Positions 1 to 14,349 of a stretch of 42,561 bases of DNA are shown here, piece by piece; position 1 is the stretch's first letter; the number at the start of each line of letters is the position of its first letter. The DNA is taken from NCBI GenBank assembly GCA_964645535.1, contig CAZYCQ010000027.1, positions 1 through 42,561 on the forward strand. The letters are read 5' to 3'. The translations under genes were made by a program, and so were the position numbers. Source of the stretch: an uncultured archaeon (GTDB lineage Archaea > Asgardarchaeota > Heimdallarchaeia > Heimdallarchaeales > Kariarchaeaceae). The notes below the pieces were generated by a model. The model had not been told where the DNA came from. It ran no database searches and saw only the letters and a program-made list of their open reading frames with translations.

Positions 1-3000
1 AATCACTTTCAAATGTTCTCCAAACAGACGAAGAAAGGTACTTGAGTATACTTATGGGGATCTTTACTTCTTTCACTAAGGAAATCTTATCAGATCTTAA
101 TTCTCCTAACAACTGATCTGGTAGAAGGGGGATAACTAAGGGGTTGGAAAGCATGTGCAAAATGCTCTGGGATCGATAAAGGTCGACAATCTCTGCAAGA
201 AGTCTTCCATCTAGATTCAGGAACAGAGGACTTTCAAGGAATGGCAAAAGAAAATCATTAAGTTTTTTGGGAAGGTGCATTTCTTTTGCACCAATCATTG
301 CCAAATCTTGGACAGTTCTGATATCTTTGACGTCCAACCAATCAAGCCTGAATGGAATGGGAATTGAACAATTGGTCCAAGAATACCATCCAAGATGGAG
401 GATATCTTTCATAGTGGAAGTGTCCAGATCATTTTGCCTGAAAACCAAAATTGCCTCAATGATATTCTCAGCACCTTGTTCTTGGGCAAATTCCATTTCT
501 CCAGGAAATGCCGTCAAATGGATGATATTGCTGAACAGAAAACGCTTCAAATCAGCAATTTCTGGGACTGAGGATTTGACGAATGGAATTACTTGATCTA
601 GAAATTCAATGCCGTTTTCCTTTAGTGATTTAATCAGTTCATTATCGGGTAGAACCTCTATGGGGATTCCTTTTGAGGAAAGGAGGATTCTATATTTTTC
701 TGTGGAAAATGTATCCTTCAATTCACGGAAGAATTTCAACGAGAGACCAGTCTTATCAGAAAGCTCATAGGGGTCTCTTAATATCAATTCCTCAATTGTT
801 GCCAAATTTGCATTCATCAGTGCCCTAAAGCTTGCTGGATCGATATCAAGAAGGGTAATGGGGGTATTGCCGCTTTGACTTAATTCAATGAGGAAACCAG
901 GAGTGTTGAAAGCCTCAAATAGAGGCAGTAGCCAATCATCATGATCGGGAGAATACCGAATCAATATTTCAGCTACTTTTTCGTCTAATATATCTTCATG
1001 TGGTGGAACAATGAAAGGAGCAAAGGCAGATTGTCTTAATTCAAGCATCAACAAAGATGGCAATCTTCTAAGTGCTTGTTTATCTACTTTATCCGGTGAA
1101 TTGATCCAGTTTTCTAGAATGGATCCATCGACAGGTGTTTGTGAGATGGCAGTGGCAGGGATTTTTGCCATTGCAACAAAAGGTCTAAAATCAATGAAAC
1201 GATTAGTCAATCGAGTTACCAAGGTATCAAGTTCAGCATCGTCATCAGACAAATCTTCTTCAGAAACGAATAAAAGATCCGCTAATGTAAGAATACCTTT
1301 TCCATTGAGTAAATCAAGTTCTTCTTCTGTTACAGAAGGAAATTCAGACAATGGCAAATCCAAAACCATTTGTGTATGTTTGATAAGGGTGGCCAAAGCA
1401 GGGTCATTAATGAAAGAATCAGAACTCAATTGATATTTAAGTTCTTGAAGTGTATCGATATCGCTACATTCGAATACACCTGATTTTGTTATTGACCTAA
1501 TCTCAGCTTTTCTGAAAATGTTGATGTCTTTGAGTGGAATACCATTCTCCTGTTCTGCCTCAGCCACTGTTTCACGAGAAATGTTGTCCAATATGAACTT
1601 GATTTCAGGTTTGGAAAGTCCAGTGATTTTAGAGGTTTTATTAATTGGAGTCAGAAGAAGGTTCAATATGCTTTTGATTCCACTTTCATGTAATTTCTTC
1701 GCGTGGAAATATCGAAGGTTGGGAGTAAAGAAAACCGTTTTGTCATATGCTTCGACAAGTGATGAAAACTCAAGAGCGTGCTTTAGATTTTCAAACCGTT
1801 CAGCAGGCAATCTGGTTTTTTGTTCAAGAATTTTGTCGCCAGTCAGCAGAAAGTCAATGATGGTCTGAATTCCACTTTTTGTCAGGGTGCTAATGATCTC
1901 TTCACCAAGTTCCTCTTCGGCAAATTTGACAGGGAGTTGGAGAAGTTGTTTGATTGAGCTTATGGCCTCCCATGGAACAAGATAGGAATCCCAACTCTCC
2001 TCGAATGTGGAGAAATAGAGATCCTCCAACGTAAGAAGATCATTTGCCTTCAGATGGGTGATTTGAATGGGTCTGAAAAGGTTAAGTGATTCCAAGTCAA
2101 TTCCAACTTCCTGAAGAATTACAGTAGTCTGTCTGGTCTTAGTCTGTTCAATCGGCCAGCCAAGGATTTCTGAAAGTTCTTCTGCCGGAGTGGTCAGAAA
2201 GTCAAAAACACGGGTAAGTTTTGCTTTGGATAGTTTCTTTAATTCATCTGCTTCCAAGGTTATGTATTTGAATTGTTTAATCTGTTCTTTTTCGTCAGCC
2301 TCAGGATTCTTTTCTGGGAGTGGAATTTCCTCTTTCCATGATAGAAGGACAGCAGGGGAACGAAGAAGAGATTTCATTTGGGAGATAACAGGCCATGTTA
2401 GTCCATAAACCTCAAACGTTTTGACCTCTGTCAGATAGTAGAGTTTCTCAATCGTATCATATCCAGATTCAATCAAAGATTGGATTTCATTGGAAGTGAA
2501 GTGAGGTACATTATCTACCTCAAATTCAAAGACACCCCTATACTTCCCTTTGGACACCTCAACTGCGATTGGTGTTCCTCGGAGTTTCAGGGAAGATTTT
2601 TCAATTTTGTCTTGTATCCGTTTCTTGGACTTTCCAAGGATATTGGCGATTCGAGTTGTCGGAGACAAAAACAATTGGTATATTCTTTTAATGCCATGCT
2701 TGCCTAATGTATCAATTTCAGAGCTTGAAAATTCACTTAGATGGACAAGTGAAAGATCGAGCTTTCGTTTTGCATTGAATACCTGAGCAACTCTGAAATA
2801 CAGGTTTTCAGGGTTTACCTCCTTTTCATCAGGATGATCAATCAGATAGAGAAAGAGATTTACAGCCTCAGAGGCTTTTTTCCCAGTCACCATTGAGGAG
2901 ATTTTGGATTTGGGGGAAGTAAGTAGCTGAAGGAAATTCCTAACACCTTTTGCCTGAAGCTTCTTCAATCCTTGCTGGAAAACCTTCTCAAGCTTTTCAT

Positions 3001-6000
3001 CCTTGAAAAATCCCGTAATTTCGGGTAGAGGACTGAAAAGGGCGGAATTTATGAGGTTATGTTTCACGATTTTTTTGCCTGCCATTGAATCAGGCAGTCT
3101 ATCCTTCCAGAGAATGGAAACAAGTTGACCGACGGTAAGAATGTTGAAAAACTTTGTAGCTTCTATTTCTGAAGAATTAAGAAATGTAATTGTTTCAATT
3201 GCAGGATCCTGTGCTTTGGCTTTTTTGATCTGTTTGAGATTAAACCCTTCTTGGAGTAATTCAAGCCATTCTTCAGACAGACCGGTTATCCTTGATATTT
3301 CATCTTTTGGCCAGATCAAGAACTTTCCAATTGTATTTATTCCTGCATCAATGAGAAAATTCATTGAGGGAATCAATTCATCAGACAGGAGATGAACAGA
3401 TTCAGCCAACAGCATGAAAAGTTCGGCCAACAGTGATTTATCTGTTTCACTTTCGATTCTTTGGTAGACACGATCAAAGTTGTAATAAAACTCTTCCAAA
3501 GTAAAAATTCCGACCTTATTGAGGATTTTAGCATTTCTTTTTCCAATCAAGTCAAGTTTATAGCCGTATTTCTTTTTCAGATTTTGCAGATCTTCTTTGT
3601 ATTCATTTTCATCAATCGGCGTTGCCAAGAATTCAAAAAGTTCTTCCAAATGGTTTTCGTTTATGTAATCTTCCAGTCCAGGCTCGATCACCTTGATTTC
3701 ATCTAAGGGGCTTACTTCATTGATTTGCATCAAACTATCGATGACACGATTCTTACTGTCTTCGAACAATAATATTCTCAGTTCATCGATTTTTTTGTGC
3801 TTGCTCATTTTGTGCGAATTGAGGTTTGCCAATTCTTCAAGAGTTTCAATTCCCAATTTTTGGAGGAGGGGAATAAATTTGGCACTTGTTTCAGATGCCA
3901 TAGTGTAGGGATCCAAAGGTGTCGAATAACCCATTAAAGTTTCCATGAGGTGTGTAAAAAGGAACCGTTGCAGTTCCCTGATTTCATTGACCACTTCAGA
4001 AGGCGTAGATAAGAGATCCTTGACTGTCTGCAATTTTCTTCGTTTGAATGCATTCCTCGTGTACCCATCAAAAAAAGGTTGGGGATTGTCAATACGTACT
4101 TCAAGGACAGAGGGGGTTTCATTTCCAATGTTATTCAATTTTTCCAGATATGTCTGGATAAGATCTGGACCAATGTTTTCTGAATTGATTGGGTTTGATG
4201 GGTGTGTTGTTTCTATTAGAAATTCGATATGGTTGGCAACCTTTCTTTTGCGAATTTCTGGGAATTTCAATAATTGGTCAAGGTCTGGGAGGAGATTTTT
4301 GGGATCAAGCAATCTTTGAAGGTCAATCTCTTCTTTATTTAGATCAATTTCAGATTTTGCTGTTGAAGGATCAAGAAATTCTTGAAGGGAAACTTTGTCT
4401 TCTTCGCTTAATTCATCCTCACCGACCATGGTTTCTTCAGCTAGTGATTGGGCAGAACTGAAATCAAGAGATTCAAGATCTGAGATCAAGGTTTCATTTG
4501 TTGAAAGTCTTTCATTGTATTGCTGGATTTCGTAAAGAAGAACAAGTTTTAACTCTTCAATTAATTTCGGTAATAGTCCTTGAACCTTATCCAATAAATA
4601 TGGTGGAGTTACAAGATAGTCCCAAGATGTTTGAATCCATCTTCTAGGAAGTGCTTTGGAAAGATGGGGCAGTTGAACTTCAGCATCACGTGAATGGAAT
4701 CTTCTTTCAATTTCCGGTGGAACAAGCAAATCAATTGGAAGGGAAGGAATATTTCCATAGGTTCCATGGATCAAGATTGTTTTTCGTTTGTAATAGTCAA
4801 TTCGTTCTGCTTTAATCCTCAATAATTTTGCAAGCCGTGCATTTTCGGTTCTGAGGAATTCTTCCGTTGTAAATATATTGTTTGATTGAAGTTTCAGTTT
4901 CCATTTTTCAGGAATCCAAATAGGTTCGATGAAAATTGATCTTCCCTTTGGAAGGTCAAATCTTCCAATTCGTGGCTCCCCTGACGAAAGTGCTGCAATA
5001 AGCCGTTCAGGTTTGAGTCCCACATCAGGATCCCACCGATTTGCTCGCTTCAGAATTTCGAGTAAATTATTCGCAGTCTGAGGAGCATATCGTTCAAAAC
5101 GTGATCGTCTCTGTCTTTCACGTTGTTTTCGTCTAGAACGGTTAAGGAATGATTTTAACTTTCGACCGAGTTGCAACAATGCCAATTTTATTTCTTCTGC
5201 AATCTCATCCACTTTGTCAATGTATTCTTTTGATGTTTCCGGGAAGGGAATTTTGGTCGATACGAGGGAGACCGCGATTGCCAAAGGATCAGATTGGCGT
5301 GTCAGACCATATTCATTCCACTTAATCGAATCTATGACATGTTTAATCACATCATTTCCTGCACCGAAAATCAAGGGAATACGGTTGGCATATCTATAGA
5401 TTACCTTGTTGTCGATAATTGTTGCCCCTTTTGATGCGGTTGCCTTATTGACCCCTCCACCATAGCCTATTGCAGCCTCAATAATAAAAGGATGTCCTTC
5501 ATAAGCTTTTGGCGGTCTGGTGACTGCTTCAACGAAAATCGGTTCTAATTCTTTCTCAATACCTTTACGCAATCTGTCTGCGCCCAATGGAGAAAGAGCA
5601 TCCCCTTTGGGCTCATCAAATTTGAAAATCCTATCTCTTTTTCTTTTTACTTCTTTTGCCTCACGGAAAGCTCTTTGAAATCCATCATGAACAATCCGCC
5701 TAATATCCTTTTCAGTCAGCTCCGAAGGTTTTTTTGTTGGATCAACACCTACTTCCTCAAAAAATGATTGTGCGGCTTGAAGACTTACGCCCATGAAGTT
5801 TTTTGAAAGAAACTCAACGACTGTGTCATTTGGGTCAGCCTGTGCAATCTCTCTTCGGAATGTGGTAATGTCGGTTCCCCAAGGGTGAACAGGGACAACC
5901 TCAGGAGGTTTAGGCAGATCATCAACGACCCTTTTGAAAATCAGTTCGTCTTCAGTTCCTGGTTCATCGCCAGGAAGGAAAATATGCATGTCTGCATAAG

Positions 6001-6742
6001 GGGTAATAATTGCCAATTGTTTGAAGTATTCTCTCACGTAATTCTTTGCTTGACCCCAGTTTCCAGTAAATGAGACCGTAACTTCTGTTCCGAAATCTTC
6101 GAAATAATCGGGGTCTTCTGGATGAATCACTTCATCAGAGATGATTATTGGCTTGTTTTGTTCCAAATTAATCTTCAACTTCACTCGATATGTGACATCA
6201 GATCCAATAGGTCTTGTAGTAATTTGGATGGGGAGATCCAGAGTAGACATTGAGTAAAGAAGAACCATCTTTGAACCGAGACCAAAACGTCCACGGGTTT
6301 GTTGAGCGCCATATTTTGTACCTGCAAGTACGGTTCCGAACAATTGCGGAATCAATTCGCGGGGAACACCGACACCATTGTCACGACATGTAAGTTGAAG
6401 GAAGTCCAATTTCTTGTTGCCCAAACGCGTTGAATCCATATCCATGAGATTGGAGACTTCTTCAACGGTCATTCGTCTGAGTCTCAGGAATATATTAGGG
6501 GTTACATTGCGTTTTTCTGCGGCATCTAACGCGTTTTCCACAAGTTCACGAATTGATGTAAAGACAGCCCTCAAAGGATTCCCAAAACCGGCTATGCTTT
6601 TGTTGTCATTGAAGAAGACAGCTGCACTTGCTGAACGAGCCTTTGAATCTGATCTTTTAATTTTCTTTGAGGGTGTTTGCTTAGTGACAATTTTTTCTTT
6701 TGAGATGGTCTTAGGTTTCTTTGGTGTCTGCTCGGTAGCCAA
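1..6742 (-). CDS. top6B: Giant DNA topoisomerase VI subunit B fused to a long array of HhH-like repeats (3' end lies outside the window; at least 2247 aa)
   Basis: Hand-translated from TTG at 6742 (AGGGG upstream). GHKL motifs: FFNDNKSIAGFGNPLRAVFTSIRELVENALDA, CRDNGVGVP, LAGTKYGAQQTRGRFGLGSK. Transducer motifs: RPPKAYEGHPFIIEAAI, RYANRIPLIFG, KWNEYGL, STKIPFPETSKEYI. No in-frame stop found by hand from about 5290 down to base 1. Its absence from the ORF track is consistent with no stop inside the window. Confidence 0.95.
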   Translation of the reverse strand, partial: MATEQTPKKPKTISKEKIVTKQTPSKKIKRSDSKARSASAAVFFNDNKSIAGFGNPLRAVFTSIRELVENALDAAEKRNVTPNIFLRLRRMTVEEVSNLMDMDSTRLGNKKLDFLQLTCRDNGVGVPRELIPQLFGTVLAGTKYGAQQTRGRFGLGSKMVLLYSMSTLDLPIQITTRPIGSDVTYRVKLKINLEQNKPIIISDEVIHPEDPDYFEDFGTEVTVSFTGNWGQAKNYVREYFKQLAIITPYADMHIFLPGDEPGTEDELIFKRVVDDLPKPPEVVPVHPWGTDITTFRREIAQADPNDTVVEFLSKNFMGVSLQAAQSFFEEVGVDPTKKPSELTEKDIRRIVHDGFQRAFREAKEVKRKRDRIFKFDEPKGDALSPLGADRLRKGIEKELEPIFVEAVTRPPKAYEGHPFIIEAAIGYGGGVNKATASKGATIIDNKVIYRYANRIPLIFGAGNDVIKHVIDSIKWNEYGLTRQSDPLAIAVSLVSTKIPFPETSKEYIDKVDEIAEEIKLALLQLGRKLKSFLNRSRRKQRERQRRSRFERYAPQTANNLLEILKRANRWDPDVGLKPERLIAALSSGEPRIGRFDLPKGRSIFIEPIWIPEKWKLKLQSNNIFTTEEFLRTENARLAKLLRIKAERIDYYKRKTILIHGTYGNIPSLPIDLLVPPEIERRFHSRDAEVQLPHLSKALPRRWIQTSWDYLVTPPYLLDKVQGLLPKLIEELKLVLLYEIQQYNERLSTNETLISDLESLDFSSAQSLAEETMVGEDELSEEDKVSLQEFLDPSTAKSEIDLNKEEIDLQRLLDPKNLLPDLDQLLKFPEIRKRKVANHIEFLIETTHPSNPINSENIGPDLIQTYLEKLNNIGNETPSVLEVRIDNPQPFFDGYTRNAFKRRKLQTVKDLLSTPSEVVNEIRELQRFLFTHLMETLMGYSTPLDPYTMASETSAKFIPLLQKLGIETLEELANLNSHKMSKHKKIDELRILLFEDSKNRVIDSLMQINEVSPLDEIKVIEPGLEDYINENHLEELFEFLATPIDENEYKEDLQNLKKKYGYKLDLIGKRNAKILNKVGIFTLEEFYYNFDRVYQRIESETDKSLLAELFMLLAESVHLLSDELIPSMNFLIDAGINTIGKFLIWPKDEISRITGLSEEWLELLQEGFNLKQIKKAKAQDPAIETITFLNSSEIEATKFFNILTVGQLVSILWKDRLPDSMAGKKIVKHNLINSALFSPLPEITGFFKDEKLEKVFQQGLKKLQAKGVRNFLQLLTSPKSKISSMVTGKKASEAVNLFLYLIDHPDEKEVNPENLYFRVAQVFNAKRKLDLSLVHLSEFSSSEIDTLGKHGIKRIYQLFLSPTTRIANILGKSKKRIQDKIEKSSLKLRGTPIAVEVSKGKYRGVFEFEVDNVPHFTSNEIQSLIESGYDTIEKLYYLTEVKTFEVYGLTWPVISQMKSLLRSPAVLLSWKEEIPLPEKNPEADEKEQIKQFKYITLEADELKKLSKAKLTRVFDFLTTPAEELSEILGWPIEQTKTRQTTVILQEVGIDLESLNLFRPIQITHLKANDLLTLEDLYFSTFEESWDSYLVPWEAISSIKQLLQLPVKFAEEELGEEIISTLTKSGIQTIIDFLLTGDKILEQKTRLPAERFENLKHALEFSSLVEAYDKTVFFTPNLRYFHAKKLHESGIKSILNLLLTPINKTSKITGLSKPEIKFILDNISRETVAEAEQENGIPLKDINIFRKAEIRSITKSGVFECSDIDTLQELKYQLSSDSFINDPALATLIKHTQMVLDLPLSEFPSVTEEELDLLNGKGILTLADLLFVSEEDLSDDDAELDTLVTRLTNRFIDFRPFVAMAKIPATAISQTPVDGSILENWINSPDKVDKQALRRLPSLLMLELRQSAFAPFIVPPHEDILDEKVAEILIRYSPDHDDWLLPLFEAFNTPGFLIELSQSGNTPITLLDIDPASFRALMNANLATIEELILRDPYELSDKTGLSLKFFRELKDTFSTEKYRILLSSKGIPIEVLPDNELIKSLKENGIEFLDQVIPFVKSSVPEIADLKRFLFSNIIHLTAFPGEMEFAQEQGAENIIEAILVFRQNDLDTSTMKDILHLGWYSWTNCSIPIPFRLDWLDVKDIRTVQDLAMIGAKEMHLPKKLNDFLLPFLESPLFLNLDGRLLAEIVDLYRSQSILHMLSNPLVIPLLPDQLLGELRSDKISLVKEVKIPISILKYLSSSVWRTFESD

Positions 6743-6960: not shown

Positions 6961-8532
6961 TCAGAAAAAATTTGTTTCAAGAAACAACTTAATTCCTCCT
7001 TCATTCCGAGAAAGAAGAGATTTTTTAAGCATATTGGCAAAATTCATTCTTTTGGCTTCTTCATTTTCGATTATCAAGGTAAGCGTTGATCCAAGTTCCA
7101 TTCGAATTCTACTTTCAGTTTTCAACCATTCGAGTATTGAGAAATCTTCATCAGGGGAGTAGGTAGGATTAGATTGGCAAATGAAGTGCCTAAAAGTGGA
7201 CAATCTCTTTGTCGAGGAATTTGACAGTTCTTCCATGAATTTGGCGGAATCAAAATTTCCTAAGGAAATAAAGTCCAACATGGAAGTTATCCTCAAGGTT
7301 TCTTTAATGACACGTCCTTTCAATCCAATTTTCTTTAGATCGTCACCGTTCAATGGTTTAGGAAGAATCATGTAGCCTTGTTTGAACTTTTCCAGTTCTG
7401 CTTGAAGTTGGGTATATGATGAATTGTCAAGTTCGCCCATCAGAGACAATGTTTTTTTGGTTTCTTCAAGGAGCGGGAGGGCAAAATTCTTTTGTCTCAT
7501 GGAGAAGTAATATGCTGGTTTGAAAATCCATCGTCGAATTTCCCCATTACTTGTTTGTTGATCAGATAGATGAAAAGCCCCATCCAGAAGAATAAGTTTG
7601 ACTGCAATTCTCAAACATTGCCATTTTCCCATACCAGGGTATCGTTTGAGGAAAAATTTGCTTATTTTATCGATATTCTTTTCCGAGAAATTTTCATCGA
7701 TTTTGAGATGATTGAACAGGCCCCTCAAATAAATCAAGGCAAAAGTGGTTTCAATATCGAGCATATTAAGAATTGAATGGTATTTCTTTTCGAGCGATTT
7801 ACACCAATCGCTGGATTCAGGAAAAAGGACATCGGAAAGACCGGTTTGGTTCAGATACTTGATCCCAATGGAAGGACGGGCTTCAAAGGTTTTCTTCAGT
7901 TCAACGTAAATTCGTTCAAGAGAGACATTATGTTTTTTCAATAACGAAGCGGAATGCTTAATTGCATTGAGCGTTTGGTTTTCTATTTCAAAATTTAACT
8001 TGGATGCGAATCTTATGGCCCGTATGATTCTTAGGGAATCTTCTTCGAAACGTTCTTGAGGAACCCCTACTGCTCTAATGGTTTTGTTTTTTAAATCCTC
8101 CAACCCATTAAAGGGGTCATGGACATTTCCATCGGAATCAGCAGCCATTGCATTGATTGTAAAGTCTCTTCTTGCCAAATCCGCCTTAAGATCAGAGACA
8201 AATTCAACATTGTCAGGTCTTCTTCCATCAGAATATGATCCTTCAACTCGGAAGGTAGTTATATCGATCTTCACTCCCTTGAAATAAACACCCACAGTCC
8301 CATGCCTAATTCCGGCATAAAATTGCTTGTATCCTTTGAATATTTTTTTGATTTCATCAGGTCGTGCGTTCGTTGCGATATCTATATCAAAGTCCTTCAG
8401 GTTCAATTCAAAATTATAGAGTTCTGCAAGTAGAAGATCCCTGACTGTTCCACCGACTATAAACGCGGTAAAACCGGCATCTTCGATCAATCGCATAGCT
8501 TCTTTCGCTCTGGATGGAACATGGACCTTCAT
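6961..8532 (-). CDS. cca: CCA tRNA nucleotidyltransferase, class II (bacterial/eukaryotic type)
   Basis: GGTVRDLLL, DIDIAT, ITTFRVEGSYSDGRRPD loop, DLARRDFTINAMA, EDSLRIIRAIRFA templating motif. Confidence 0.9.
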   Translation of the reverse strand: MKVHVPSRAKEAMRLIEDAGFTAFIVGGTVRDLLLAELYNFELNLKDFDIDIATNARPDEIKKIFKGYKQFYAGIRHGTVGVYFKGVKIDITTFRVEGSYSDGRRPDNVEFVSDLKADLARRDFTINAMAADSDGNVHDPFNGLEDLKNKTIRAVGVPQERFEEDSLRIIRAIRFASKLNFEIENQTLNAIKHSASLLKKHNVSLERIYVELKKTFEARPSIGIKYLNQTGLSDVLFPESSDWCKSLEKKYHSILNMLDIETTFALIYLRGLFNHLKIDENFSEKNIDKISKFFLKRYPGMGKWQCLRIAVKLILLDGAFHLSDQQTSNGEIRRWIFKPAYYFSMRQKNFALPLLEETKKTLSLMGELDNSSYTQLQAELEKFKQGYMILPKPLNGDDLKKIGLKGRVIKETLRITSMLDFISLGNFDSAKFMEELSNSSTKRLSTFRHFICQSNPTYSPDEDFSILEWLKTESRIRMELGSTLTLIIENEEAKRMNFANMLKKSLLSRNEGGIKLFLETNFF

Positions 8533-10782: not shown

Positions 10783-13395
10783 TTAGGATTTGGAAAAGCG
10801 AAAGTCACCGTGAATAGGGGACGCAATAAATGTTTCAACTCCTTCAAAATTGAAATCTAGCTCTGTTGACATGGTCCCGAATTTTTGCAATGCATCTATT
10901 GCACCAATTCTATGGAGGGGTTGATTGTTATTTCCGCACTGATATGAGTAAGTGCATCTTGGACATCCATCAATCCTCCCACATGGACAATCATTCAAAA
11001 TTTTCAAGGTTCGGGAAATCCCTTTCTCCATTCGCTCAAAAAGAAGCTTTGAGAGACCTGAACCTCCCGGCGAACCATCATACACGAAAACGAGCCCAGT
11101 ATCTCCCATTGACAATCCACCTATCTGATTTGCACCGCCTCCTGTCAACGAATTACCGGATTCAATTAAAACATGTTCGATTGCGTGGAAAGTCCCACCT
11201 AGAACATCCTGAATTTTTTCCTCAGAAGTCTGTTCCAACACGTTTTCAGGTTTAGGGAATTGGATGGCAAATCCTTTCGTTTTGAATTTATATTGCAGAG
11301 GTTTTTCTAAACTATATTTTCCGATAATTCGGTCAGTGAAAATGTTTGAACGATAATATCCCGTTACAGTCTCAGTCAATTCCAATGTAAGGTAAGCAGC
11401 AGAAAGCCCGTCAATGTCTACCTCCTTGTCTATTTCAACAACAGTTGGCCACATTGTTCTTTCTGCTTGGGTTTTTTCTCCTCGTTTGTCAGTCTCACGA
11501 ATTCTGGCTACTTTTTTCTTGCCATCAAAGCCTATAACTTCATACGTTTTTCCTCCGTGAAGGTAGATGGCACCGGGATGGAGTTCTGAAAGAGCCATGG
11601 GCAGGGATCTTTGCCCCACCTTTTTGTTGCCGTTATAAATGTCAATTGCGGCCCCAATACCTCTGATTGAGAAATTCTGCAATAATTGGGAAACCTTGTA
11701 TTTATCTTTGACCCGGATTCTTCCGTTTCTCTTCACTAGAATTCCTCTTTTCAGAAGAGGTTCTGCAAAAGCAGAATACTTGTCAGCCTCCGCTTCAGTT
11801 AGAGGCAGTTCAAAAGCCATTGCGAGAATTTGCATGGTTCCGACCAGATCATTGTTTGGTTCAACAAATACAGGATCGATTTCAGTAAGGTATTCATTTG
11901 GATTTCGTGCATAATAGGCAGAGATTGGGTCATCTCCACGGAAAACAAGTGCAGAAATACTTTCATCTCCACGTCTTCCAGCTCTGCCGACACGTTGGAT
12001 GAAATTAGTCAATCCTGTCAGCATCGTGACTACAGCATCCAAATCACCTATATCAATTCCCAACTCCAATGTCGGGGTTGAGACAAGGGCTTCAAGTTTT
12101 CCAGTACGAAATGCTTTCTCCACAGATGACCGGTGGGAGTATTCAAGCCCTGCCCTATGAACCTCAGAATTGATTGAACTGTTTTTGAGAATCAGATTTA
12201 AGGCTTCAGCAGTCAAATGGCTATTTGCAAAGGCCAAAGTCTTTTTCCTTTCACGGACGAGATAGCTTATGATTCTAGCCATGGTTGATAGGTTTGACGA
12301 TTCCTTCGGATAGACCATGGTTAAATGCATAGGTGATTTCCGTGCGGTTTTAATTCCAATATGGATGACTTCTCGTTCGAACATCGTTTCCGCGAATCCT
12401 TTGGCATTTGAAACAGTTGCACTTGCTCCGATCAACTGCATTTTTGGTGCAAACCGTTTGAGCCGTCGTATCAGCCAGAGAACATTTGAACCATAGGAAC
12501 CAACACAAAGATGGATTTCATCAATGACCAAGAATTTCAGATTTCGAACCATTCCCTGAAATGAAAAATTGGATCGGAGGTGGTAATGTATCATATCTGG
12601 ATTAGTGATAAGGATATCGGGAGGATTCTGGTAAATTGAATCTCGTTCCGTTTTTGAGGTATCCCCATCAAACTTTTTGACAGAGACCCCAATGGTTGAA
12701 GCGTATTCTATTATCTTAAAGAGTTGATCCTTTGCAAGTGCCTTGGTTGGGTATATGAAAATGGCTTGAGGACCTTTTCGATCAAAAGGATTTGGATTTT
12801 CGGAGACAATTCTTTCGATTATTGGAAGGAGAAAGGATTCAGTTTTTCCCATTCCGGTTGGTGCAGTGATGATGACAGAGTGACCTGATGAAATTGCATA
12901 ATATGCCTGTTGTTGATATTCATAAAGGTTAGAGATTCCTTTGTTTTTCAGGACGTTATGAAGTCCATTAAAGAGAATGACATCCTCAACTGGATCCCCT
13001 TCTTTTGGAGGATTTGGTTTAAGATAATCGTAATTGACGAGATAATAGGATCGATCAGAAGCAATTTTTTTGACAACTTCAGGGATATTCTGAGGTAATT
13101 TTTGGATTGCCCTTATGGCATTTTGCTCGATTTTTGGGTCAACCCTTAGTTTCTTTCCCTTTTTGATCCAACCTTCATCAAGGGATCTCTTGGTTTTGAA
13201 ACCATGACGAGTTGCGGGAGAAGCATGGGTTCTCCGCATTTTTTTCTGCAAAAGATGGAATGTTTCTTCAGCAGAAAATCCAGGCTTTCCCTTGTGGGAA
13301 AAGCCACATTCTTCGCAAAAGAAGGTAACGATTCCCTTTCGTTTACTATGATCTAGATTTCCAGAACAGTAGGGGCATTCAAATGTTGAAACCAT
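10783..13395 (-). CDS. SF2 DEAH-box helicase, MrfA/Hrq1/SftH family, with N-terminal Zn ribbon and C-terminal DUF1998-type Zn site
   Basis: APTGMGKT, YPTKALAKDQ, DEIH, SAT, LELGIDIG, QRVGRAGR. C-terminal CPCGRIDGCPRC; N-terminal CPYC..CEEC. Confidence 0.9.
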   Translation of the reverse strand: MVSTFECPYCSGNLDHSKRKGIVTFFCEECGFSHKGKPGFSAEETFHLLQKKMRRTHASPATRHGFKTKRSLDEGWIKKGKKLRVDPKIEQNAIRAIQKLPQNIPEVVKKIASDRSYYLVNYDYLKPNPPKEGDPVEDVILFNGLHNVLKNKGISNLYEYQQQAYYAISSGHSVIITAPTGMGKTESFLLPIIERIVSENPNPFDRKGPQAIFIYPTKALAKDQLFKIIEYASTIGVSVKKFDGDTSKTERDSIYQNPPDILITNPDMIHYHLRSNFSFQGMVRNLKFLVIDEIHLCVGSYGSNVLWLIRRLKRFAPKMQLIGASATVSNAKGFAETMFEREVIHIGIKTARKSPMHLTMVYPKESSNLSTMARIISYLVRERKKTLAFANSHLTAEALNLILKNSSINSEVHRAGLEYSHRSSVEKAFRTGKLEALVSTPTLELGIDIGDLDAVVTMLTGLTNFIQRVGRAGRRGDESISALVFRGDDPISAYYARNPNEYLTEIDPVFVEPNNDLVGTMQILAMAFELPLTEAEADKYSAFAEPLLKRGILVKRNGRIRVKDKYKVSQLLQNFSIRGIGAAIDIYNGNKKVGQRSLPMALSELHPGAIYLHGGKTYEVIGFDGKKKVARIRETDKRGEKTQAERTMWPTVVEIDKEVDIDGLSAAYLTLELTETVTGYYRSNIFTDRIIGKYSLEKPLQYKFKTKGFAIQFPKPENVLEQTSEEKIQDVLGGTFHAIEHVLIESGNSLTGGGANQIGGLSMGDTGLVFVYDGSPGGSGLSKLLFERMEKGISRTLKILNDCPCGRIDGCPRCTYSYQCGNNNQPLHRIGAIDALQKFGTMSTELDFNFEGVETFIASPIHGDFRFSKS

Positions 13396-13464: not shown

Positions 13465-14349
13465 TTAAGCCACGGTCAATTTTTCTATTGCGGCAACTAC
13501 CCTTTGGGTCTGTGAAGTCAATCGTTCGAGTTCATACAAATCGTTCGAAATGAGAATAAGGAAGGCTCCTTCATAGCAAAATGCAGGGAAAATACTTGCA
13601 TTACCCTTAGCGATTGGTACCAATTTTGGTTCTTGATCGATGTTGGCAAAAGGATCCTGAAGTTCTTCCATTGATTTTGTTGCAATATCTGCATAATCTT
13701 CAGGAGGATCCCTGCCACTGTACATATAATTGATATGCCCTTTATTCTTGACAATGAACATTCCAGCTCGGAGTTGGGTATGGGTTTTGACAATCTTGGA
13801 GATAATTTGACGGATTTTTATCCAAATTTTGGACTTCACATTGATCTTGGTCATATTGGATGTTTCCACGATATCCTTAGTCTTTAGTTGTTCAAGAACA
13901 GCTCCTTCTCTAATTGATTTGATTGTTTCCCATTCAATTGCCCTTCCCAATTCTTCAAAAAGGGATTTAAAGAGTAACCGACCTTCGGGATTTTTCTGTC
14001 TCAACTGTTCAATTGTCTCGAATCGATCCATGATCTGTTCAATTAGCCAAAGACTTTCTTCAGAGTTCATGTCGACATCTACATTTAGGACGACCAATTT
14101 ACCTTCATAATTCGCAAAGGCAAATTTGTGATTTTCCAACGATATGAGCTCTATATCTCCCCCACCCAATTGTTTTGAATACATATGGACAGTGGCGAAC
14201 ATTGCACTATGAAGATCAGGGTCTTCATCAGTTTCTACAAAATATTCATAATGCTCAAGAAGACCTGCGTCATTGATAATGTAAAATGCACGAACCTTTT
14301 TGATCAGATCATCGATTTTTCTCCATGGTTTTGAGGGTTGTGTCGCCAT
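13465..14349 (-). CDS. Longin-like domain protein with a possible second longin/roadblock-like domain
   Basis: N-terminal VRAFYIINDAGLL...DPDLHSAMFATVHMYSKQLGGGDIELISLENHKFAF resembles Asgard longin-like domains (pattern recognition only). Confidence 0.6.
   Translation of the reverse strand: MATQPSKPWRKIDDLIKKVRAFYIINDAGLLEHYEYFVETDEDPDLHSAMFATVHMYSKQLGGGDIELISLENHKFAFANYEGKLVVLNVDVDMNSEESLWLIEQIMDRFETIEQLRQKNPEGRLLFKSLFEELGRAIEWETIKSIREGAVLEQLKTKDIVETSNMTKINVKSKIWIKIRQIISKIVKTHTQLRAGMFIVKNKGHINYMYSGRDPPEDYADIATKSMEELQDPFANIDQEPKLVPIAKGNASIFPAFCYEGAFLILISNDLYELERLTSQTQRVVAAIEKLTVA

Follow-up and report, generated by a model that had tools for sequence, protein, structure and literature searches.

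The window analysed here comprises positions 1 to 42,561 of contig CAZYCQ010000027.1 (forward strand; GenBank assembly GCA_964645535.1) from an uncultured archaeon of the Kariarchaeaceae, recovered from a hot-spring metagenome and placed in the same Heimdallarchaeia family as the isolate RS678. At its left end, on the minus strand, lies the 5' part of top6B, the gene for the B subunit of topoisomerase VI (Topo VI), which is open at the contig end after the first 2,257 of 3,505 codons. The rest of the gene was found on a second contig (G000:C110:3-3878, plus strand), and the two contig ends are joined by an overlap of 44 codons. The resulting length of 3,505 amino acids (aa) is also that called in a second record, from a near-identical strain, in which the gene is contiguous. 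A few bases after top6B, top6A follows (C110:3887-5302), with its catalytic Tyr and the metal-binding acids of the Toprim domain retained. These adjacent genes encode the single Top6B and the single Top6A found in the genome, which is 89% complete. This Top6B is about six times the usual size, a normal enzyme core being followed by approximately 35 small helical modules.

The core (aa 44-577) matches NF003218 with 457 bits against a cut-off of 274 and the Pfam family PF09239 with an E-value of 1e-53. It aligns without a break to Top6B of S. shibatae (2zbk_B; aa 44-579, E 2e-93), and a structural match was obtained with Foldseek (E 5e-11). The GHKL ATPase motifs are intact (N box at aa 76, G1 at aa 131, G2 at aa 161), and the H2TH domain and a transducer with the switch Lys515 are present. 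In the WKxY-type motif at aa 485, the Trp and Tyr are kept and the Lys is replaced in families f1, f3 and f4 of the survey described below; the Lys is kept in f5 and in Borrarchaeum. Judged from its sequence, the protein is almost certainly a Topo VI B subunit with an intact ATPase-transducer core and an arm of tandem units of the double helix-hairpin-helix, (HhH)2, fold. The same sequence evidence assigns it to the Top6B family and not to topoisomerase V (Topo V), despite its Topo V-like layout.

An earlier note, made from the window's letters, had described about 20 degenerate modules in the tail of this protein and quoted nine peptides as examples, all of which were located in the minus-strand frame at the places given. 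The number was right for the window. A comparison of hidden Markov models (HMMs), in which a 24-sequence orthologue alignment was set against units from other families, yields 20 units between aa 615 and 2163 (nt 284-4930), 16 of them at probabilities of at least 90%, two at 84-85% and two weak (53% and 60%). For the whole protein the comparison gives 35 units of approximately 60 residues each, with a maximum of 2% in windows of the Top6B core, which served as the negative control. The note had missed that the gene runs about 1,250 residues further and that the design is lineage-wide. A repeat HMM, seeded once with the Top6B of this genome and afterwards rebuilt solely from other families, detects 15 window units at E<=0.01, compared with a mean of 0.02 (maximum 1) in shuffled tails and none in the reversed tail. 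A longer unit model finds 16 units in the window and 27 in the whole protein. Arm gaps of 100-250 residues to which no unit was assigned may, to judge from the sequence, hold further degenerate units. In a simple form, the recurring motif was counted 14 times in the tail, whereas 1,000 shuffles gave 2.2 +/- 1.5 (maximum 8); the full consensus proposed in the note with a terminal Gly-Leu-Ser hairpin fits a minority of units. The coordinates of all window features are given in Table 1.

Table 1. Features of the top6B frame and the second type II topoisomerase in the window (probabilities are those of the HMM-HMM comparison)
Feature	Position (nt)	Strand	Evidence and remarks
top6B frame, first 2,257 codons	2..6772	-	Runs off the contig; continues at C110:3-3878 (+)
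Top6B catalytic core, aa 44-577 (GHKL, H2TH, transducer)	5042..6643	-	NF003218, 2zbk_B, motifs, Foldseek
Units 1-2 (aa 615-665, 703-746)	4535..4930	-	98 and 94%; immediately follow the Top6A-binding helices; basic in relatives too (mean charge in the family +2.5 and +3.5); folded in the model
Acidic low-confidence linker, aa ~769-815, likely hinge	4328..4468	-	pLDDT <50 in three runs
Unit 3 (aa 836-856), weak	4205..4267	-	53%
Units 4-8 (aa 897-944, 963-997, 1022-1055, 1072-1112, 1125-1182)	3227..4084	-	90-98%; repeating helix pattern, pLDDT ~86-95
Units 9-10 (aa 1191-1220, 1266-1299)	2876..3202	-	84 and 94%
Units 11-16 (aa 1340-1732), acidic Trp-bearing units and beta-hairpin insertion, best conserved	1577..2755	-	97-98%; pLDDT 86.7, pTM 0.73
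Unit 17 (aa 1806-1841), strongly acidic	1250..1357	-	96%; net charge -11
Units 18-19 (aa 1971-2026; aa 2037-2072 weak)	557..862	-	97 and 60%; best Pfam RNA_pol_A_CTD stretch aa 1968-2021
Unit 20 (aa 2136-2163)	284..367	-	85%
gyrB-gyrA, second type II topoisomerase of the genome	33274..37987	-	Context; 27 kb upstream of top6B

The fold assigned in the note, that of the C-terminal domain of the RNA polymerase (RNAP) alpha subunit (alpha-CTD), the RadA/Rad51 N-terminal domain and the NusA AR domains, was upheld by Pfam, by profile search of the PDB and by structural matches of AlphaFold models. Among 27 orthologous segments, all matched the Pfam profile RAD51D_N, 17 matched RNA_pol_A_CTD and 16 matched HHH_5; the tail of the present Top6B scores 42.4 bits with RAD51D_N (cut-off 27.3) and 28.6 with RNA_pol_A_CTD (cut-off 23.8). 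When the unit profile was compared with PDB sequences, alpha-CTD ranked first (1doq, E 3.7e-5), then NusA-AR (E 7e-5) and, lower down, Hel308, XPF, Dmc1 and RAD51D. Two segments were modelled with AlphaFold, and both models contain one copy of the helix pattern per unit. The first (aa 385-1185) has a mean predicted local distance difference test score (pLDDT) of 84.3, with the acidic linker at aa ~769-815 disordered; the second (aa 1335-1745, six units) has a pLDDT of 86.7 and a predicted template-modelling score (pTM) of 0.73, which is consistent with packed neighbours. The N-domains of RAD51D, RAD51B and RAD51C head the structural matches with middling Z-scores (6.3-6.9), followed by AF1548, NusA-AR2, alpha-CTD and many SAM domains, the whole list lying at Z 5-6.9. 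Superposition of the five-helix fold on RAD51D (Z 6.9, root-mean-square deviation 3.1 over 61 residues) is modest in Z and was counted only jointly with the sequence evidence. Foldseek returned nothing at E<=0.001 for the six-unit model against the PDB, and the ESM Atlas gave no match to the whole array (best TM 0.29 by query).

Repeats at the DNA level, none of which had been visible in the note, are essentially absent: the matches detected are short and two-copy, and the strongest, over 38 nt with 74% identity, links a pair of neighbouring units. Units within the protein average 12.8% identity, while units at the same position in relatives are usually 25-60% identical; the expansion is therefore old, as the note had suggested and as the Top6A tree described below also indicates, and each unit has its own history. 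The best-conserved part of the arm is aa 1401-1700, with a mean identity of 42-55% against 21-43% in the remaining tail. Neutral expansion of repeats, or an artefact of assembly, is hardly credible as an explanation and is largely refuted. Top6B lengths do range between 1,100 and 4,300 aa, and in the distal tail identity within the family group has fallen to 21-30%, as such an origin would allow. However, the ratio of nonsynonymous to synonymous substitution rates (dN/dS) is 0.09-0.31 in the tail and 0.01-0.13 in the core over six species pairs, which indicates purifying selection; for this genome and its nearest relative no ratio could be calculated, the synonymous sites being saturated. Moreover, the frame is open and colinear in dozens of genomes, two closed ones among these, the gene is contiguous in the second assembly record, and the region is covered by overlapping contigs from the source run, for which no joints are listed. 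No RNA data set was listed among the sequencing runs.

Directly upstream of top6B lies a gene for a class II (bacterial/eukaryote-type) CCA-adding enzyme (window 6961-8532, minus strand), an adjacency shared with one other species of the genus. A DEAH-box helicase of 870 aa with an MZB domain (Hrq1/SftH-like; window 10783-13395, minus strand) is encoded 4 kb upstream of top6B, and a 294-aa protein at 13465-14349 (minus strand) has merely a weak roadblock/LC7 match (E 0.13). Downstream of top6A, a convergent gene with several CxxC pairs (L003:5301-5786, minus strand) has no Pfam match, and its position is kept in f1 and f4.

In a survey of 400 Asgard genomes, units were counted with one HMM across families. 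From the labels of colinear proteins and genomes, f1, which contains isolate RS678, was inferred to be the Kariarchaeaceae, f5 the Hodarchaeales and f28 Ca. Borrarchaeum (Sifarchaeia). Top6B frames are longest in f3 (4,140-4,305 aa, two closed genomes included), and f2 and f3 carry 34-39 units. Frames of ~2,200-3,600 aa in f1 and ~3,570 aa in f4 contain 24-30 units when full-length, and the 2,190-aa form of RS678 contains 13. The Hodarchaeales have frames of ~2,315 aa with 25-27 units, Borrarchaeum ~2,290 aa with 17 units, and the second Top6B copy of f7 ~1,110 aa with 7 units. No unit matches were found in the other Asgard Top6B proteins sampled. The Top6B proteins of ~1,000-1,250 aa in Lokiarchaeia and others were considered as tailed forms and rejected, being long through insertions and without unit matches. 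In a separate expansion, other Asgard Top6B proteins (L060, L062, L064) reach 1,000-1,285 aa by what, by eye, resemble repeated H2TH-type insertions inside the core. The Top6B of Dive100_bin10.34 is divided into frames of 629 and 3,018 codons, with the break right after the core (L011:6720-6780). A naturally split gene was rejected here; most likely a single base is missing from a short run of A, probably through an assembly error, recoding being possible.

Other carriers were sought among 1.8 billion representative sequences. Among the best 150 matches, arrays of at least 12 units were Top6B proteins or fragments of them, with the exception of one partial open reading frame (P0111), which by its sequence is probably a Top6B too. 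Carriers other than Top6B among these 150 reach up to ~11 alpha-CTD-like units; three of the uncharacterised proteins (P0149, P0155 and P0126; 800-1,030 aa, 9-11 such units) have N-termini resembling signal peptides. In a tree of Top6A, the tailed pairs form one group (support 94/87) within an Asgard-wide clade, and sporadic extra copies fall apart from it. The f7 family branches first, Borrarchaeum next and the Hodarchaeales after. The tree is midpoint-rooted and contains no eukaryotic sequences. Because Borrarchaeum is nested among Heimdallarchaeia families, transfer or hidden paralogy is possible. As the sequences indicate, the fusion has been inherited, and it is conserved in both Heimdallarchaeia and Borrarchaeum.

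The partner subunit has changed as well. Top6A begins with a ubiquitin-like domain of ~88 aa (L003:3887-4156 on G000:C110; profile to ubiquitin, E 1.5e-4), which all sampled long-arm families have, whereas f7 and the Top6A proteins of other Asgard archaea lack it, and which was gained on the branch on which the arm lengthened. A complex prediction of this domain with units 1-2 gave a score of 0.00, which counts neither for nor against contact.

A second type II enzyme is present in every tailed family. Gyrase was found in 68 of 70 genomes of f1-f6, and in the Hodarchaeales the giant top6B has gyrA as its immediate upstream neighbour; f7 and Borrarchaeum are without gyrase but have a short second Top6B. 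Strict dependence of the long arm on gyrase was rejected, since Borrarchaeum carries 17 units and gyrase in none of five genomes, two of which are 100% complete. The GyrA of the window ends in an acidic tail, and its GyrA-box is a variant one. In f3, many of the GyrA frames are longer and are matched in pieces, the pattern that inteins would give. In Borrarchaeum, a HEAT-repeat protein (L076:2-2749) is encoded directly upstream of the giant top6B, and the short second top6B lies ~5 kb upstream.

Hairpins of the canonical Gly-hydrophobic-Gly (GhG) type are nearly absent in this family (1 of 111 and 0 of 111 units) and occur in 0-4% of units in other long arms. The 7-unit tail of f7 has them in 44% and 30% of units and is basic, at net +1.7 per unit; the longer arms are neutral to slightly acidic, from -1.0 to +0.1 per unit, and the whole tail of the present Top6B carries -1.9 charges per 100 aa. 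In a 435-aa protein of the same genome with four canonical HhH_5 domains (L052:2789-4093; G000:C49:11788-13092), used as the control, the GhG hairpin was found in 3 of 3. At the columns equivalent to Arg265, Asn268, Gly296, Lys298 and Ser299, the DNA-binding positions of alpha-CTD, arm units are variable (Arg 7%, Gly 3%), and that surface is not matched. Basic units cluster beside the core (aa 633, 713), in mid-arm (aa 1277) and at the end (aa 3375-3427). The last 50 aa are rich in Lys (19 K/R and 1 D/E), and the C-terminus is basic in nearly all relatives.

These data do not establish the DNA-binding or apurinic/apyrimidinic (AP) lyase role that the earlier note implied, given the 0-1% of family units with a GhG hairpin and the slightly acidic tail. 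With the hairpins lost and the arm neutral or acidic, wrapping of DNA as in Topo V is doubtful here, as is a lyase. A clamp in which the (HhH)2 array surrounds DNA or runs along it lengthwise, as a built-in processivity factor, would have a precedent in a topoisomerase with a tandem array of the same fold class, whose 12 domains wrap DNA with only some in contact (PMC9489208), and the basic f7 tail with its GhG motifs would suit it. It is nevertheless improbable for the long arms: the interior of the Topo V array is positively charged (PMC9489208), at odds with the net charge and the scarcity of GhG motifs in this tail. Similarity of the six-unit model to Topo V (2csb) is negligible (E 0.63, probability 0.07), which is no exclusion on its own. 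Very improbable is a role in repair, in which some units would carry AP or 5'-deoxyribose phosphate (dRP) lyase lysines as three Topo V domains do (PMC9489208). A Lys is common in the last helix of the unit (46% of units), but it is not part of a hairpin, and the units have lost the HhH hairpin by which DNA is positioned.

Some of the same features would suit a protein scaffold, in which degenerate modules dock partners such as the replisome, SMC, histones or the division machinery and so localise Topo VI, in the manner of NusA-AR, alpha-CTD or SAM domains. The long arms lack DNA-binding hairpins, and their most conserved block is acidic and Trp-bearing. The closest profile matches, alpha-CTD and NusA-AR, are domains that mediate protein contacts; many SAM domains are among the structural matches, and the branch on which the long arm arose is also the one on which Top6A gained its ubiquitin-like domain. 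In the loci inspected, however, no conserved partner gene stands beside top6B-top6A, and a scaffold leaves the need for 17-40+ units and the basic tip unexplained. No convincing PCNA-binding motif was found at the C-terminus of this Top6B; similar motifs occur in some f3 proteins. A scaffold is somewhat unlikely, though a stronger candidate than the clamp.

The reading favoured here, with a probability of roughly 0.4, is that of a long tethering arm on a Topo VI specialised for decatenation, beside gyrase or a second Topo VI. It is ranked first, the scaffold second and the wrapping of DNA third, and tether and scaffold are not mutually exclusive. At the outset the array would have been short and basic, a canonical HhH tail that binds DNA, as in the 7-unit family; its lengthening would have produced a semi-rigid arm, for the most part structural, with a hinge after unit 2. 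Such an arm would hold the enzyme on DNA or chromatin by means of a small number of basic units, beside the core, in mid-arm and at the end, and by the Lys-rich tip, rather than by wrapping DNA along its whole length. Two arms per A2B2 enzyme might prolong dwell time and help in the capture of a distant second duplex. Topo VI, a preferential decatenase (PMC8837201), would thereby be specialised for decatenation and segregation, with supercoiling left to gyrase or a canonical Topo VI; C-terminal extensions have been proposed to specialise Topo VI beside gyrase (PMC9348778). It is conceivable, if doubtful, that the two arms, each with 25-40+ modules and perhaps tens of nanometres in length, span the distance between remote stretches of DNA or chromatin or serve as docking sites for segregation factors, which would make the topoisomerase also a structural scaffold.

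Several points weigh against a tethering arm. Most arm units have a neutral or acidic charge, the block of highest conservation (aa 1400-1700), itself acidic, suits protein binding better than DNA binding, and the 2,190-aa form of the marine relative RS678 ends just weakly basic. The pTM is a mere proxy for rigidity. The order from short to long arms depends on one Top6A tree with a midpoint root and 94/87 support, and co-occurrence with a second type II enzyme goes back to a small number of events that were then inherited, so that the cases are not independent.

Spo11/Top6BL and plant Topo VI both descend from Topo VI. If eukaryotes arose within or beside the Heimdallarchaeia, the Topo VI of their ancestor may have borne such an arm and later lost it. 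The conserved Asgard copy of Topo VI has been reported as sister to the eukaryotic one (PMC12680538). The present analysis adds a graded series of units in which GhG hairpins and positive charge were lost as the arm lengthened. The natural series of 0, 7, 17, 27 and 35+ units makes the function proposed for the Top6B C-terminal domain (CTD), sequestering or specialising the enzyme beside gyrase (PMC9348778), testable. In the literature covered, outside which lie subscription journals and most supplements, no description of a Top6B repeat arm was found. Surveys of Topo VI diversity mention, at the C-terminus, either short helices or one globular domain, and the passages covered describe no repeat arm (PMC9348778, PMC11302465, PMC9665070, PMC12680538, PMC8185306).

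Among known systems, canonical Top6B (S. shibatae 2zbk_B, 530 aa; M. mazei 2q2e_B, 621 aa, with an immunoglobulin (Ig)-like CTD) shares the GHKL, H2TH and transducer domains, the catalytic motifs and the top6B-top6A pair. It differs in ending with a short helix or an Ig-like CTD of ~100 aa (PMC9348778), where the present protein has ~2,900 extra residues of (HhH)2-fold units and a Lys-rich tip, and in a Top6A without the ubiquitin-like N-domain. The unit itself is like the N-domains of RAD51, RadA and RAD51 paralogues, RNAP alpha-CTD and NusA AR1/AR2 in length, helix pattern and hydrophobic core. These occur in one or two copies, however, against ~35 in the arm, where their DNA-contact positions are unconserved. 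The uncharacterised multi-alpha-CTD proteins and the archaeal type IA topoisomerases (TopA) with HHH_5 tails (Atlas clusters) carry shorter arrays, up to ~11 units in the former, and not on Top6B. Similar in layout is Topo V of Methanopyrus kandleri, a type IC enzyme in which an enzyme domain is likewise followed by a tandem (HhH)2-class array of 12 domains (PMC9489208). Its catalytic domain is unrelated, the present enzyme being of type IIB, and its basic, DNA-wrapping array with AP-lyase sites contrasts with the neutral or acidic array without GhG hairpins found here. With ~35 units, the arm has roughly three times the length of this array, the textbook example of (HhH)2 domains in tandem.

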